This document shows positions 1-9,228 of a DNA stretch of 9,228 bases, in pieces (position 1 is the stretch's first letter; the number at the start of each line of letters is the position of its first letter). Under the pieces are notes generated by a model. The model saw nothing but the letters and a program-made list of their open reading frames with translations, had not been told where the DNA came from and did not search any database. The DNA lies in IMG/VR virus record IMGVR_UViG_2526164665_000028; one strand, given 5' to 3'. Source of the DNA: a virus. Lineage: Duplodnaviria > Heunggongvirae > Uroviricota > Caudoviricetes. A program made the translations under genes and the position numbers.

Positions 1-241
1 AGTGGCCGTAGGCCGGAAAAACTGGATGTTCGCGGGTTCCGACAGCGGTGGTGAACATGCGGCGGTGTTGTACTCGCTGATCGGCACATGCCGTCTGAAC
101 AATGTGGAGCCAGAAAAGTGGCTGCGTTACGTCATTGAACATATCCAGGACTGGCCGGCAAACCGGGTACGCGATCTGTTGCCCTGGAAAGTTGATCTGA
201 GCTCTCAGTAAATATCAATACGGTTCTGACGAGTCGCTTAC
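1..241 (+). mobile_element. IS66-family insertion sequence, right end (partial; continues left of window)
   Basis: Transposase C-terminus in frame 2 followed by a terminal sequence ending ...GAGTCGCTTAC at 231-241, the reverse complement of the GTAAGCG motif typical of IS66-family inverted-repeat termini. Confidence 0.7.
2..211 (+). CDS. IS66-family transposase (TnpC) C-terminal fragment, 5'-truncated by window edge
   Basis: Translation ...RKNWMFAGSDSGGEHAAVLYSLIGTCRLNNVEPEKWLRYV...LLPWKV matches the conserved C-terminal region of IS66 TnpC. Stop TAA at 209-211. Confidence 0.8.
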   Translation: MAVGRKNWMFAGSDSGGEHAAVLYSLIGTCRLNNVEPEKWLRYVIEHIQDWPANRVRDLLPWKVDLSSQ

Positions 242-3012: not shown

Positions 3013-3273
3013 ATGAATAGTATTTCCGTTTCCACCCCGGCACCAGCTGCTCCGGTGCTCCCGGTTCCGGCTCAGCAGGAGCGCTTCATACGATTACCTG
3101 AAGTGATGCACCTTTGCGGGCTATCCCGTTCAACCATCTACGACCTTATCAGCCGCGATGCCTTCCCGCAGCAGATATCCCTGGGTGGAAAAAATGTGGC
3201 CTGGGTACAGTCGGAGGTCAGTGCATGGATGGCGGCGCGAATTGCTGCCCGCGAGCAAGGAGGCCATGCGTGA
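3013..3273 (+). CDS. alpA: AlpA/Vis-family phage transcriptional regulator (excisionase-like HTH)
   Basis: 86 aa; AGAGG 7 nt upstream of ATG. Product ...[49 protein letters not shown]... is the AlpA/Vis helix-turn-helix signature. Confidence 0.85.
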
Positions 3274-3338: not shown

Positions 3339-3367
3339 TTTCCCGCTGCCGCAAAATCGGCTGCCGG

Positions 3368-3395
3368 GCGTAGGAACCCGAGTTACTTATTGGCG
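3368..3395 (+). promoter_or_regulatory. seqA-like bipartite target for the CI-like antisense RNA
   Basis: Half-sites GTAGGAAC (3370-3377) and CTTATTGG (3386-3393), complementary to TTCCTAC (3545-3551) and CCAATAAG (3529-3536) on the same strand. Confidence 0.5.
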
Positions 3396-3400
3396 ACACC

Positions 3401-3423
3401 AGACGCGCCGTGCGTCTTTTTTT
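3401..3423 (+). terminator. Intrinsic terminator-like hairpin in the immunity leader
   Basis: AGACGC-GCCGT-GCGTCT perfect 6-bp stem followed by TTTTTT. Confidence 0.5.
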
Positions 3424-3487
3424 ACGTCGTTGCTCAGGCACACCCATTTTTCGGGCTGCGGTGCTTATACCTTAGCCCCTTTCAGAT

Positions 3488-3572
3488 AATGGTGGTCCGG
3501 GCGGGGCAGCCTTCGGGCTGGCCGGTTTCCAATAAGGCCGGTATTCCTACCCCCGTTCGGGTCACCACCCAT
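3488..3572 (+). ncRNA. CI / C4-type antisense immunity RNA (boundaries approximate)
   Basis: GGTGGT (3491-3496) pairs with ACCACC (3564-3569) as a terminal stem; internal UUCG-closed hairpin CAGCC-TTCG-GGCTG (3507-3520); exposed region 3526-3552 carries the two blocks complementary to the upstream and downstream targets. The only ORF here (3571-3813, alternative frame) is likely spurious. Confidence 0.5.
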
Positions 3573-4042: not shown

Positions 4043-4362
4043 AATCACGCACTCTTTCCCTTTCACTTCGGGTAGCGTTGTATCGCCGCGCGGTAGCCTG
4101 CGCCTGGTTGAGTGCCTGCTATCAGCAAAACCGCCATCTGCAGCTCACTCTGGATGAAATTGAAACCGCTATTGCCCGTGAGCTTGAAGGATTTTATCTG
4201 CGACAGCACGGGCAAACAAAAGGCATGGAAATCGCCTGCGCCCTGCTTTCAGACCTGATGGAATACGGCCCTCTAATGTCCTGTCCCGCACTCTCCCAGC
4301 TCGGAATAGCCGTAATGGATGAGTTATGCGTCCGTCACATCAAAAAGCCGGTTTTACACTGA
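4039..4362 (+). CDS. Hypothetical protein of the satellite left operon (immediately upstream of primase)
   Basis: 107 aa; GGAGG at 4027-4031 upstream of ATG 4039; translationally coupled to the preceding ORF. Confidence 0.6.
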
Positions 4363-4376
4363 GGGAGAACTGCGTC

Positions 4377-6710
4377 ATGTCAGGAATGAAAGTCAGTCAG
4401 GCCGTGAAGGCTGCCCGCGGTCACTGGGCTCAGATTCTGCCAGCGCTGGGCGTGAATATATTGAAAAATCGCCATCAGCCTTGCCCGGTCTGTGGCGGTA
4501 AAGATCGTTTTCGCTTCGACGATCAGGAAGGACGCGGAACATGGTTCTGCAATCAGTGCGGAGCCGGGGATGGTTTAGCGCTTGTCACCAGGGCACTGAA
4601 TGTGGATATCAGTGAAGCAGCTGACAGGATACATGGACTGACACATGATCTGTCTGTAGTTAATTCCGAGGTCAGGACGTTAACCGCCGATACCGATAGC
4701 GGGAAAGATGCAGCGGCAGCACTTGCCGCGCGACTGCTGCAAGCCTCGCGTGAATCTGCCGGAAACACTTATCTTACACATAAAGGTTTCCCGGAGCATA
4801 TTTGCCATGAGCTGACTTCAGCTCATAAGGCCGGTGGTATGATGTTCCGCCCCGGTGATTTGATCGTCCCACTCTATAACGCTGACGGGGAGCTGGTGAA
4901 TATTCAGCTCATCAGTGGCAATGGTAGCAAGTGTTTTCTTAAAGGAGGTCAGGTTAAGGAGGCCTATCATCTGATAGAAGGGGGCGGGAGTTCTGTAAGA
5001 AGGATTTGGATTGCGGAAGGTTACGCCACGGCGCTTACCATTCATTATTTGACAGGAGAAGCCGTCATGGTGGCATTTTCGTCGGTCAACTTTCTTTCTC
5101 TGAGCAGCGTTGCCCATAATAAGTATCCGGGATATCAGTTAATTATTGCAGCGGACCGCGATCTGAATGGTTCAGGCCAGAACAGGGCTGAAACTGCTGC
5201 AAAAGCGAGTCAGTGTGACATTGTGCTGCCACCGGTTTTTGGTGACTGGAATGATGCGCTTACCCAATACGGAGAGGAATCCACCCGGAAGGCAATTCTT
5301 GAGGCTTTGAAGCCACATAACGCCAGTCCTTTCGACACAATGAGTGAAGCAGAATTCACAGCGATGAGTGTCAGCGAAAAAGCTCAGAGGGTTCGGGAGC
5401 ATTACAGGGATGCACTGGCGGTTGATCCGAACGGGCAGCTTTTATCCCGCTACGAGTCTGGAGCGTGGAAAGTTATTTCTCAGTCAGATTTTGCCCGAGA
5501 TGTCGCAGCCCTTTTCCAGCGCCTCGGGGCACCGTTTTCCTCAGGAAAAATTGCCTCACTGGTGGAAACATTAAAGTTAATTGTTCCGCAGCAGCAAAAT
5601 CCGTCACGTCATCTGATTGGTTTTCGTAATGGCGTTCTCGATACGCGAACAGGGCTTTTTAGTCCGCACTGTAAAGAGAACTGGCTGCGTACCCTGTGTG
5701 AAGTCGATTTCACGCCACCGGTAAAGGGGGAAACGCTTGAAACTCATGCCCCGGCATTCTGGCGTTGGCTGGACCGGGCCGCCGGACACAAGCCAGCAAA
5801 ACGCGACATTATTCTTGCAGCGTTATTTATGGTGCTGGCGAACCGCTATGACTGGCAGCTCTTTCTGGAAGTGACTGGCCCTGGTGGAAGTGGCAAAAGT
5901 ATTCTGGCTGAAATTGCGACCATGCTTGCTGGAGAGGATAACGCCACCTCTGCGACCATTGAAACGCTGGAGTCCCCGCGAGAACGTGCGGCTCTGATAG
6001 GTTTTTCTCTTATTCGCCTGCCTGATCAGGAGAAGTGGAGCGGCGACGGCGCCGGGCTTAAGGCTATAACTGGTGGCGATGCAGTATCTGTGGACCCCAA
6101 ATATCAGAATGCTTATTCAACACATATTCCGGCGGTTATCTTGGCCGTAAATAATAATCCTATGCGCTTCACTGATCGCAGTGGTGGTGTGTCCCGCAGG
6201 AGAGTTATTCTGCATTTTCCTGAGCAGATAGCACCGGAAGAACGCGATCCGCAGTTGAAAGATAAAATTGCACGAGAACTGGCTGTGATTGTTCGTCAGC
6301 TCATGCAGCGTTTCAGCGATCCGATGAGCGCCAGAACATTGCTTCAGTCGCAGCAGAATTCTGATGAGGCTCTCACCATCAAGCGTGATGCTGATCCAGC
6401 ATTTGATTTTTGTGGCTACCTTGAGGCATTACCTGACACCAACGGTATGTTTATGGGGAACGCCAATATTGTCCCACGCCAGCCACGTACATACCTTTAC
6501 CATGCCTACCTCGTATACATGGAGGCTAATGGCTATAAAAACACCCTGAGTCTTACGATGTTTGGCAAAGGGTTGCCAGTCATGCTGAAGGAGTACGGGC
6601 TACATTATGAGAAACGGCGAACTAATCAGGGAATGCAAACTAACCTCACTTTGAAAGAGGAGAGTAATGCAGACTGGCTGCCCAAGTGTGATGAGCCAAT
6701 ATTAAAATAA
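4377..6710 (+). CDS. P4 alpha-type primase-helicase (zinc-ribbon, TOPRIM primase, SF3/D5-type helicase, C-terminal origin-binding region)
   Basis: ATG 4377 with GGGAG 9 nt upstream, giving 777 aa (the ORF call from 4326 overlaps the previous gene). N-terminal CPVCGGKDRFRFDD...WFCNQCGAGDG zinc-binding motif, TOPRIM-like IAEGYATALT...IIAADRD, Walker A VTGPGGSGKS. Confidence 0.9.
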   Translation: MSGMKVSQAVKAARGHWAQILPALGVNILKNRHQPCPVCGGKDRFRFDDQEGRGTWFCNQCGAGDGLALVTRALNVDISEAADRIHGLTHDLSVVNSEVRTLTADTDSGKDAAAALAARLLQASRESAGNTYLTHKGFPEHICHELTSAHKAGGMMFRPGDLIVPLYNADGELVNIQLISGNGSKCFLKGGQVKEAYHLIEGGGSSVRRIWIAEGYATALTIHYLTGEAVMVAFSSVNFLSLSSVAHNKYPGYQLIIAADRDLNGSGQNRAETAAKASQCDIVLPPVFGDWNDALTQYGEESTRKAILEALKPHNASPFDTMSEAEFTAMSVSEKAQRVREHYRDALAVDPNGQLLSRYESGAWKVISQSDFARDVAALFQRLGAPFSSGKIASLVETLKLIVPQQQNPSRHLIGFRNGVLDTRTGLFSPHCKENWLRTLCEVDFTPPVKGETLETHAPAFWRWLDRAAGHKPAKRDIILAALFMVLANRYDWQLFLEVTGPGGSGKSILAEIATMLAGEDNATSATIETLESPRERAALIGFSLIRLPDQEKWSGDGAGLKAITGGDAVSVDPKYQNAYSTHIPAVILAVNNNPMRFTDRSGGVSRRRVILHFPEQIAPEERDPQLKDKIARELAVIVRQLMQRFSDPMSARTLLQSQQNSDEALTIKRDADPAFDFCGYLEALPDTNGMFMGNANIVPRQPRTYLYHAYLVYMEANGYKNTLSLTMFGKGLPVMLKEYGLHYEKRRTNQGMQTNLTLKEESNADWLPKCDEPILK

Positions 6711-6721
6711 CGATTAACTAA

Positions 6722-6746
6722 CCCGGCTGATGCCGGGCTTCTTATT
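6722..6746 (+). terminator. Intrinsic terminator after the primase gene
   Basis: CCCGGC-TGAT-GCCGGG hairpin followed by CTTCTTATT, 12 bp past the alpha stop. Confidence 0.55.
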
Positions 6747-6771
6747 GGAAACGCACAAATGTAGAGATAGC

Positions 6772-6979
6772 TGTTCACTCTTCACCTCGCTGTTAACACG
6801 TAAACAATTGATATATAAGTTAAAAATGGCAGGGTGAATAGTGTGCATGGTTTTGCGAAAAAAAAGTATTTTTTGTAGAGTCAAGTCCCGGTTTGGATCC
6901 GTTTAACGGAACCTAACTAGATTGACTATTTCTCTGATGATTTTTGGATAAATAATCAACAAAAATCAAAATGTGAACA
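6772..6979. repeat. Second iteron cluster (crr-like), downstream of primase
   Basis: TGTTCACT (6772-6779), TTCACC (6781-6786), TGTTAACA (6791-6798), GGTGAATA (6833-6840, rc TATTCACC), GTGAACA (6973-6979, rc TGTTCAC). Confidence 0.45.
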
Positions 6980-7060
6980 GAGAATGGTGGGGGCACAAAA
7001 AGGGGCATAATTGAATTAATTATAATTAAATTTCAATTTTTACAATAGGTTAAATGTGTG

Positions 7061-7082
7061 TGCGAGTCCGGCCTTCGCACCA
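7061..7082 (+). other. att core: 3'-terminal fragment of a tRNA-Leu (leuX-type) gene, probable attR / right boundary of the satellite
   Basis: TGCGAGTCCGGCCTTCGCACCA matches the T-loop/acceptor 3' end of E. coli tRNA-Leu(CAA) as I recall it (TTCGAGTCCGGCCTTCGGCACCA) with two differences. No 5' half is present, so this is a duplicated integration-site fragment, not a tRNA gene. Confidence 0.55.
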
Positions 7083-7615
7083 AGTTACTAAATTCCTTAC
7101 AATACAGTTAGTTAGACGATTAAATCTGTCTCTTTTGCCTGTAAGAAATGCTCTGTTATGTCCCTTGAAAAAGCCGCTGTGGTTGATAGTGGTAATTGGG
7201 ATGTTAACTCATAGCGGCGTGTCGTTCCAAGCGTCAAACACGTACTGACTCAACTTGAAAGCTATGACGTAGCCACCGTCTCTAAACAATCCCAAAACTT
7301 TTAGTGCAGCGCATTTTAGCCCGATGCCCCCATTCTGTCGCCGTCGCGAGACGCCGCAGGGGATAAACAGGTTTATGGTGGTCACGGTACTTGCAGACCA
7401 TATGCAAGCTCTGCCAGCGGTTCGGCCTCGCTCCCCTTGGGTACATGGTCATCCTGATAAGCCTCACTAACTGACATAACCCTGATGAAGTCGCAAGAGG
7501 CTCCGCTTGTTGTCTTACCACCAACGGGGCTTTATGGATTCTATTGCTTAATATATGATTGTATCAAACTTAGACTGCATAATTTAAACGAACATAACAA
7601 TCAGGCAGGGGAAGA

Positions 7616-8440
7616 ATGATAAAGCCATTTTCTGTGAGGTATGGTCATGTTGACGTTAGAGAGCATGTCCAGCTGAATGATCTTAATTCTGATACACGCA
7701 TGGCATTGTGGAATTGCTTATATCTTTTCCTTTGGACTAACAATCGTCAAACTGCTACAGCAACAAAATGTGCGCAGTCTGTGTGGATATATTATCTAAA
7801 TCAACCTGCGGATAATATTCCTCGTTATGAAAGTGGATACAAAAGTGATAAGACGTTGCTGACTGCTATCCGAGATTATATATATGGGGAAGCATGGTAT
7901 TTGGTATATGATTTAATTGAGTTCATCATTGAGAGAACTAATTCATATATTAATCTATCGAAGCATCTCAATTCCATCTTTAAAAAGCATGGCGTTGGTT
8001 ATACCATAATAAATGGTTGTATTACTCCTATTTCAAATGATAACGAAATTGAAAGTGTTCAGAACGCAGTTGATAATGGCACTGATTCATCGCGTAGCCA
8101 TTTCGAAAGGGCGTTACAACTAATGACGGATAGAGAGCAGCCAGACTACAGAAACTCGATTAAAGAGTCTATCTCTGCAATTGAATCTTTATGCAGGAAA
8201 ATCACGGGCAATGATAAAGGAACCTTGGGGGCTTGTCTTAAAGCTATAGAGGAAAAAGGATATATACACTCTGCAATGAAAGGCGCTTTTAGTCAGCTCT
8301 ATGGTTATACAAGTGATCAGGGTGGAATACGTCATGCGCTAACAGAAGAAGATGTAAATCCTACCTTAGCTGAAGCTAAATTTATGTTAGTCACTTGCAG
8401 TGCGTTCAGTAATTATCTGTTGTCAAAAATAAGTGATTAA
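7616..8440 (+). CDS. Hypothetical protein, tentatively AbiJ-like abortive-infection protein (HEPN/Abi_C-like C-terminal region)
   Basis: 274 aa; GGGGAAG upstream of ATG 7616; stop TAA at 8438-8440. Strongly AT-biased codons. N-terminus MIKPFSVRYGHV...ALWN and C-terminal ...YGYTSDQGGIRHALTEED... recall AbiJ-N/Abi_C proteins, but this is from memory of motif patterns only. Confidence 0.55.
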   Translation: MIKPFSVRYGHVDVREHVQLNDLNSDTRMALWNCLYLFLWTNNRQTATATKCAQSVWIYYLNQPADNIPRYESGYKSDKTLLTAIRDYIYGEAWYLVYDLIEFIIERTNSYINLSKHLNSIFKKHGVGYTIINGCITPISNDNEIESVQNAVDNGTDSSRSHFERALQLMTDREQPDYRNSIKESISAIESLCRKITGNDKGTLGACLKAIEEKGYIHSAMKGAFSQLYGYTSDQGGIRHALTEEDVNPTLAEAKFMLVTCSAFSNYLLSKISD

Positions 8441-8488: not shown

Positions 8489-8964
8489 TTATTCACCAGA
8501 CTCTAATCTTTTTTCTCTTTTCTCATCTCTCCTTTTTATTGCCAAATCGTGTTGCTCTTGCAGATACGTGCGTTCTTCGTTTCTATCGCTTGAAGTATAT
8601 ACGTCTGCTTTTACTTTTTTAGCTCCTTGTGCAATAGGTTTCCAATCCTCTCTTATACCTTTAATTTGTTCTGCAATTTGCGTCAATGGGCTTCTCGCTC
8701 CTAGATAACTTATTCCTTCAAATGTCGCCATGTCATACACATATTCATTTGTTTCTCTATCGTTTGATTTAGGTTTGCTTGCCCAGCTTATATTAATATT
8801 ATAAATTTGATCTTTGATTTGTTCATACTTACAGAGATTGCTGGTAAGTGATTGCCCATTTTTTAACACGCTTACCTTACTAAACGGAATCTCACTTTTT
8901 TCTCTATGCTCCGCATTTACTAGTGGAGGATCAAACACAACCTCAACATTATAGGCAGGTGAGG
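8489..8964 (-). pseudogene. Hypothetical protein, 5'-truncated by IS3-family insertion (remnant ORF; first ~44 codons of the 8489-9097 ORF are IS-derived)
   Basis: The ORF reads in frame across the IS terminus at 8965. Downstream of the junction the first in-frame ATG is far inside the ORF; only a GTG at 8936-8938 with a close GAGG is available. AT-rich composition like the neighbouring gene. Confidence 0.5.
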
Positions 8965-8975
8965 TGTACTGGCAA
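8948..8975 (-). promoter_or_regulatory. Hybrid outward promoter at the IS3 junction
   Basis: On the minus strand, TTGCCA (IS terminal repeat, 8970-8975), 16-bp spacer, TATAAT (flanking DNA, 8948-8953), reading into the truncated gene. Confidence 0.4.
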
Positions 8976-9228
8976 TAGCGGACACTACCATTTGTTCTTT
9001 TTTTAAGCAGCCATCTGATGATATTTTTCCCTGAAGGCTGCCGGGGAGATATTCCCCAGACGAGAGTGACGACGCTGACGATTGTAGAAAATCTCAATGT
9101 ATTCCCGTATTACTGAGATGGCTTCATCCCGGTTATTAAAACGATAGTGGCTCAGGCTCTCATTTTTCAGCGTTCCCCAGAAGCTTTCCATCGGAGCGTT
9201 GTCGTAACAGTTACCTTTACGCGACATT
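8965..9228 (-). mobile_element. IS3-family insertion sequence, terminal part (continues right of window)
   Basis: Terminus TGTACTGGCAATAGCGGACAC at 8965-8985 resembles IS3-family terminal inverted repeats (TG end, CAATAGxGGACAC block); the transposase C-terminus lies just inside it. Confidence 0.7.
9003..9228 (-). CDS. IS3-family transposase OrfB C-terminal fragment (integrase catalytic core end)
   Basis: ...GNCYDNAPMESFWGTLKNE...RDEAISVIREYIEIFYNRQRRHSRLGNISPAAFREKY is the conserved C-terminal region of IS3-family OrfB; stop TAA at 9003-9005; 5' end beyond the window. Confidence 0.8.
   Translation of the reverse strand, partial: MSRKGNCYDNAPMESFWGTLKNESLSHYRFNNRDEAISVIREYIEIFYNRQRRHSRLGNISPAAFREKYHQMAA

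Follow-up and report, generated by a model that had tools for sequence, protein, structure and literature searches.

A leuX 3'-end fragment as the attR core of a P4-like satellite prophage in Escherichia coli O26:H11, with a core one G shorter than that of P4

The short tRNA-like fragment at positions 7061-7082 of the window—the whole stretch of 9,228 nucleotides analysed in this work—is very probably the attR core, that is, the int-distal junction, of a P4-like satellite prophage integrated in the leuX gene of E. coli. The feature is of a known kind and had been correctly identified in the preliminary description made from the sequence, and no evidence against the assignment was found. The fragment lacks one G that is present in leuX; this single-G state is the usual one of element-side cores in P4-like satellites and other leuX islands, the tRNA-side cores keeping GG.

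The fragment, its genomic setting and the boundary of the satellite

The fragment, TGCGAGTCCGGCCTTCGCACCA, was described as the 3' end of a tRNA-Leu(CAA), in agreement with the leuX of the same genome, which ends ...GGTTCGAGTCCGGCCTTCGGCACCA. The alignment of both reveals one mismatch at 7062, where the fragment has G and leuX has T, and the lack of a G from CTTCGGCACCA—exactly the two differences that had been described—with the exactly matching blocks CGAGTCCGGCCTTCG (7063-7077) and GCACCA (7077-7082); on the left, the G at 7060 can be included in the similarity as well. The match of 21 nt reported originally is right as the count of matching bases, the fragment itself being 22 nt long. It should be pointed out that the mismatch at 7062 falls within the P arm of the element, outside the 20-bp core annotated in P4, and that the missing G is a common feature, not a private one of this copy. 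ARAGORN recognised no tRNA gene in the window, i.e. no complete cloverleaf as expected for a functional tRNA gene, and Rfam returned no matches over 6700-7650 even at E ≤ 1, so the fragment has no tRNA body on its 5' side, as had been stated.

The whole window is 100% identical to the genome of E. coli O26:H11 str. 11368 (NC_013361.1), in which the intact tRNA-Leu(CAA) gene and int, both expected to the left of the window, were indeed found, the former 14 kb upstream of the fragment and on the same strand, the latter starting 164 nt past leuX and encoding a tyrosine integrase of 420 amino acids. The insertion, counted from the first base past the leuX CCA through the final A of the fragment, covers 14,010 bp, of which ~11.4 kb represent the satellite and the remainder an ISCro1 (IS66-family) insertion; its content is a cargo region, ISCro1, delta, psu, a sid-like gene, the AlpA/Vis gene, Ash/Icd, DUF5375 and alpha. 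The direct-repeat partner is thus the 3' end of the intact leuX at the int-proximal end, adjoined by the P4-family integrase gene, and the P4 core genes (delta, psu, sid-like, vis, alpha and the C4 RNA) lie between both repeats, with alpha read towards attR. Together with the exact breakpoint described below, this arrangement bears out the original reading as the int-distal att core. The coordinates of all the features are summarised in Table 1.

Table 1. Features of the satellite, its right-hand junction and the adjacent DNA (window coordinates unless the locus L001 is indicated)
Feature	Position	Strand	Basis or remark
Vis/AlpA-type excisionase-regulator gene	3013..3273	+	64% identical to P4 ORF88 ('excisionase and transcriptional regulator')
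isrK Hfq-binding RNA match	3345-3422	+	Rfam, 72 bits, above gathering score
C4 antisense RNA (P4 immunity RNA)	3485-3572	+	Rfam, 83 bits, above gathering score
alpha primase-helicase, last satellite gene, towards attR as in P4	4377..6710	+	Pfam, P4 alignment, RefSeq annotation
Tandem pair of arm-type Int-binding repeats in the P arm, GTGGGGGCACAA + AAAGGGGCATAA	6987..7010	+	P4 annotation/alignment; Int binding predicted
Remainder of the satellite P arm	6711..7063	+	Alignment to P4 4050-4635
attR core, GAGTCCGGCCTTCG-CACCA	7064..7082	+	P4 20-bp att core (3'-terminal 20 nt of leuX) with one G absent
Right flank B', outside the satellite	7083..7615	+	Directly 3' of intact leuX in satellite-free E. 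coli
AbiJ-NTD4 domain gene, flanking island/backbone DNA	7616..8440	+	Pfam PF18863, E = 5.8e-27; beside leuX without the satellite
Gene downstream of AbiJ and IS600	8489-9097 and 9003-9228	-	Window right end
Intact leuX, tRNA-Leu(CAA)	L001 6689-6773	+	O26:H11 11368 locus, outside the window
Fragment in the genome	L001 20762-20783	+	Same strand as leuX

Concerning the boundary, the segment 6300-7700 of the window was compared with 5,426 complete E. coli genomes, 745 of which matched it, 108 of them carrying the whole junction. Among these 745 genomes, the partial matches of the satellite side end at window positions 7081-7083 and those of the flank side begin at 7059-7063; the boundary of the insertion between occupied and empty sites (breakpoint 7059-7083) therefore coincides with the repeat, and the fragment marks the satellite boundary, as had been claimed. 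In the satellite-free WG5::PA2 (L002), the intact leuX continues directly with AGTTACTAAATTCC..., corresponding to the window from 7083 onward, and then with the AbiJ-NTD4 gene. The same empty arrangement, leuX followed by the AbiJ flank, is present in ~220 E. coli genomes, including E. coli C; the flank continues straight from the CCA end of leuX there, and it is leuX, not another tRNA gene, that the fragment matches. The related satellites of ij001 (L003) and XDL (L177) share the core end, beyond which they have another right arm and an additional integrase. Based on these occupied and empty sites, the satellite ends at 7082, and the AbiJ module as well as the IS3-family element at the right end of the window, here recognised as IS600, lie outside of it, as first proposed. 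In annotation, 7082 is thus the right-hand limit of the satellite, and the AbiJ module with IS600 should be regarded as flanking DNA of the leuX hotspot, not counted as satellite cargo.

Two other explanations of the fragment were considered. A chance match, or a decayed pseudo-tRNA without a link to any mobile element, has in its favour only the short length of the match, and was rejected as practically negligible: the 22-mer, allowing three mismatches at most, has a single occurrence in the 41-kb genomic locus and none in 100 dinucleotide-preserving shuffles, the junction is exact in the population comparisons, and the P4 arm sites are correctly spaced from the core. The fragment might also be a remnant of attL, forming the left end of a separate AbiJ/IS island situated to the right and not belonging to the satellite. 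The AbiJ flank begins immediately past the CCA, like the P' arms of islands, and the ~380-nt block of this flank is conserved 3' of leuX-type cores in other genera. Such an origin appears, however, very improbable, since the single-G core and the P arm move with the satellite (in L003, L177 and the IMG/VR loci having many right flanks), the AbiJ flank without the satellite follows an intact GG leuX, and no integrase is present in the AbiJ flank in the stretches examined.

With the fragment taken as the attR core, the satellite would have been inserted through site-specific recombination catalysed by Int, with its attP and the leuX 3' end as partners. The products would be an attL, in which the intact leuX is joined to the int-proximal P' arm outside the window, and an attR, in which the alpha-proximal P arm is joined to the former downstream flank of leuX. 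Both sites, together with Int and the Vis/AlpA-type protein—judging from its similarity, likely the directionality factor for attL × attR—would then lead to excision.

The right flank exhibits a few further features. The ~380-nt block between the core and AbiJ (7167-7546) shares 75-81% identity with sequences located 3' of leuX-type cores elsewhere—in Pantoea eucrina (L113), Dryocola (L097) and the locus L149—with indels disrupting all its reading frames, and its minus strand resembles a degraded P-loop gene (SPVGGKTTS). The segment 7083-7300 has no unusual fold (z = -0.33) and no Rfam match at a permissive threshold. The hypothetical gene 3' of AbiJ, which is complete with 573 nt in the satellite-free WG5::PA2, has its N-terminus cut off by IS600 here.

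Comparison of the satellite with P4

The att system of the window element resembles that of P4 in the tRNA target, in the gene order with alpha running into att, and in the arm-type repeats and their spacing. The P4 record gives a 20-bp attP core, GAGTCCGGCCTTCGGCACCA, with 12-bp arm repeats on both sides, and the core sequence is quoted identically elsewhere (PMC6177240). In P4, the arm repeats at 4151-4174 and the core at 4078-4097 are separated by 53 nt, the same distance as in the window element, where the repeats precede the core on its 5' side; the P4-type GGGGGCAT repeats are present also in the int-side P' arm of the O26 genome. The proteins are 95% (Int), 64% (Vis) and 73% (alpha) identical to their P4 counterparts, alpha exhibiting the Pfam domains Zn_Ribbon_Prim, Toprim_3, D5_N and Pox_D5. 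The P arm contains an alpha-terminator-like hairpin, one crr-like unit with the P4 type-1 ori repeats, an inverted repeat GGTTTGGATCC...GGAACC and an AT-rich spacer.

The core is, on the other hand, not identical to that of P4, agreeing with it in 19 of 20 bases with one G absent, and the base 5' of GAGTCC is C in the window element, whereas it is T in P4. Further differences are the single crr-like unit versus two 120-bp units in P4, the ISCro1 insertion and a different cargo region beside int. Thousands of P4-like satellites of Enterobacterales have been delimited by their att sites (PMC13586616); with respect to these there is no categorical difference, the window element being one more member. 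That tRNA fragments mark the ends of islands belongs to textbook knowledge (Islander; PMC4383910).

With regard to the remaining parts of the satellite, the isrK and C4 matches form a P4-type immunity region within the area of the Ash/Icd-like ORF. The segment 289-330 of the window, TGCGCGCAATGCCCCGCCCGCCTGCCCGCTTCGC, is similar to the cos of P4, whose cos junction it resembles in reverse complement, and is located ~80 nt to the right of the end of the ISCro1/IS66 transposase (window 1-211); ISCro1 adjoins the packaging site, on the cargo side.

State of the missing G at element-side and tRNA-side cores

The position CTTCG[G]CACCA was used as a marker and scored by what adjoins its left side. 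Exact copies of the single-G core were retrieved from IMG/VR at 37 loci, all but one (36/37) with P4-type arm repeats ~55 nt upstream and with very diverse right flanks. An unbiased sample of IMG/VR P4-type P arms, drawn via the arm repeat, comprised 24 cores with a single G, two with GG and eight others, besides three further cores cut by contig ends; of the eight others, three carry CCTTCGCA repeated 2-4 times in tandem, a further three end CGCAC before another flank, one reads CTTCACCA, and the last has no core. Since the same deviation is thus the majority state (24/34) of natural P4-like elements, the absent G is no argument against placing the window element in the wider P4-like family. 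The cores having TTT as their left flank comprise 29 with a single G versus one with GG, and those with TGC two with a single G and one with GG. When each species was represented by one genome, at least 120 single-G loci were obtained; among the loci listed, ~100 are situated on AT-rich arms of elements, the tandem arm repeats belonging to at least six families, across Enterobacterales, the genera including Erwinia, Serratia, Yersinia, Pectobacterium, Proteus, Photorhabdus, Xenorhabdus and Salmonella.

The tRNA-side cores present the other state: all 13 cores preceding a P4-type P' arm in IMG/VR have GG, mostly in an intact leuX, that scan for the core with the P4 P' arm retrieving only attL-type sites and no attP. 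Junctions of the type P arm-core-P' arm (alpha, core, int), found in metagenomes with a search pattern open to either state, carry the single G in four of four cases, although these may be mid-sites of tandem arrays, one being on a 349-kb contig; two further such junctions (L063 and L148) with a single G come from a scan restricted to single-G cores. No excised attP circle was seen, and no excised form of the window element was found.

Three types of right arm—the P4 P' arm, the intB-type arm and the AbiJ flank—switch the marker with the left arm, having GG after a tRNA body and a single G after a satellite P arm. The AbiJ flank has GG after leuX in ~220 genomes, in contrast to the single G after the satellite in the window, L012 and L040, and a single-G leuX joined to this flank was encountered in none of the 5,426 E. 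coli genomes. Similarly, the intB-type arm, AAAGTATG..., has GG in K-12 and a single G after the satellites in L003, L177 and eight IMG/VR loci. The missing G as a private inactivating mutation of this copy was therefore rejected, the state being common among element-side cores. The literature searched, coverage of which was incomplete, contained no mention of this regularity at attR, which may be undescribed.

Apart from the single-G and GG cores, the three IMG/VR loci with tandem copies (L186, L187 and L188) have P4-identical P arms followed by four, three and two tandem CCTTCGCA, respectively, before the CCA and the same right flank, corresponding to an expansion of the 8-nt unit at the presumed zone of exchange.

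Position of strand exchange and other leuX islands

The difference between the single G of the element side and the GG of the tRNA side offers a natural genetic marker for the position of strand exchange by the P4-family integrases. Because the marker is linked to the left arm, the sequence comparisons suggest, with moderate confidence, that attP carries the single G and that the strands would be exchanged within the last ~6 bp (GCACCA) of leuX, that is, 3' of the marker and not in the GAGTCCGGCC block. The host would in this way keep GG and a functional tRNA, and the element would keep its single G through the cycles of integration and excision. An exchange region of 6 bp abutting unconserved flank DNA would be unusual, which counts against this position. 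The proposal can tentatively be widened to the leuX-targeting elements as a whole—the P4-like satellites and at least six other island families across Enterobacterales—for which it is possible that the attP core is 1 G shorter, that exchange is confined to GCACCA, and that the 20-bp core of laboratory P4 represents an atypical GG variant from a rare left-block exchange. If true, the same rare left-block exchange would explain tRNA-damaging excisions, such as the loss of PAI II536. The exceptions to the single-G rule form a complementary set, as expected from such an exchange.

These exceptions count against exchange in the right block. They are the GG of the P4 reference attP, GG on the element side in L042, L178 (alpha 99% identical to the window's) and the island of Nissle 1917, and a full Pantoea eucrina tRNA-Leu body with a single G. 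The PAI II536 attR, whose run identical to leuX is the left block, counts against it as well. Concerning the Pantoea locus (L113 2010-2093), the full-length tRNA-Leu(CAA) body has the single-G core as its 3' end, its acceptor stem is mismatched (5' GCCGGAG versus 3' CTTCGC), and no integrase was found in the 8-kb locus; judging from the sequence, it resembles a scar left by exchange on the left side of the marker.

The main rival of the right-block proposal assumes exchange in the left block (GAGTCCGGCCTTCG) and an attP with GG as in P4, the missing G coming from the displaced host copy, which would have lost it before or after integration; excision would then leave a damaged leuX, and the element would 'rescue' the tRNA and become stabilised. 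The GG of the P4 reference attP fits this assumption, as do the attR of PAI II536, where the 18-nt leuX-matching run is the left block with the damage just to its right, the reported restoration of a complete leuX upon re-integration into a deletion mutant (PMC3202238; PMC9686529), and the Pantoea eucrina locus, resembling such a scar. Left-block exchange as the rule appears nevertheless unlikely, as the same 1-nt deletion would be needed independently on dozens of unrelated right arms. Moreover, it predicts GG at the P arm-core-P' arm junctions, where a single G was seen in 4/4 and in the two from the single-G-only scan, and a marker following the right arm, whereas the three right-arm types switch it with the left arm; a single-G leuX preceding the AbiJ flank is likewise absent against ~220 with GG in the 5,426 E. 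coli genomes. A heteroduplex model that places the marker within the overlap and assumes selection for a functional leuX was rejected, since it predicts a takeover of attP by GG and an attR ratio of ~50:50, the observed one being 24:2.

PAI II536, the leuX island of the uropathogenic E. coli 536, is described as flanked by an 18-bp direct repeat (PMC9686529), and the tRNA gene of the deletion mutant 536-21 is reported to become complete again when the island re-integrates (PMC3202238), implying that this P4-like Int exchanges strands within the left block. The attR of this strain, ...ATGTTC/GAGTCCGGCCTTCG-ACCA, is found at the right end of the island (L180 47396; NC_008253.1 ~4,837,395), reading TTGGTATCTGTGTTGGTATA...CGCATGTTC/GAGTCCGGCCTTCG-ACCA/CACCGTATGC. 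In comparison with leuX it has a 2-nt deletion, and the run identical to leuX together with the left flank, GTTCGAGTCCGGCCTTCG, has 18 nt, so this left-block run explains the published repeat. PAI II536 and other leuX islands with P4-like integrases share with the window element the core, an element-side copy imperfect just past CTTCG—two bases being lost in 536 (CTTCG-ACCA) versus one in the window element—and tandem arm-type repeats, located ~55-75 nt upstream of the core. They differ from the satellite in the sequence of the arm repeats (e.g. TTGGTATCTGTGTTGGTATA) and in being islands of ~100 kb, not helper-dependent satellites. In view of the single-G regularity, an imperfect right-hand repeat at leuX islands is no evidence of decay or immobility, as which it is sometimes read (PMC9686529).

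As regards further leuX-type sites, a different leuX island of E. coli Nissle 1917 (L176 3005) ends ...GACTTAGGTTC/GAGTCCGGCCTTCGGCACCA/AGTTACT, with GG on the element side, and the same island family has a single G in Pantoea dispersa (L064) and in a Pectobacterium strain (L098). At several loci (L014, ~120-212; L051, ~1720-1808; L161, L046 and L048), GG or single-G cores come after only the last ~12-50 nt of leuX-like sequence, preceded by unrelated DNA, e.g. ...GTTGAAGCAAGCTAAGCCGCCTAAACCCGTGCCGGTTC/GAG..., and ARAGORN called no tRNA at the three of them inspected in this way (L014, L051 and L161). These short-remnant cores may be attachment sites of a secondary kind or carried by an element; the P4-like satellite of L051, whose attR ends CGCAC, is apparently integrated at one of them.
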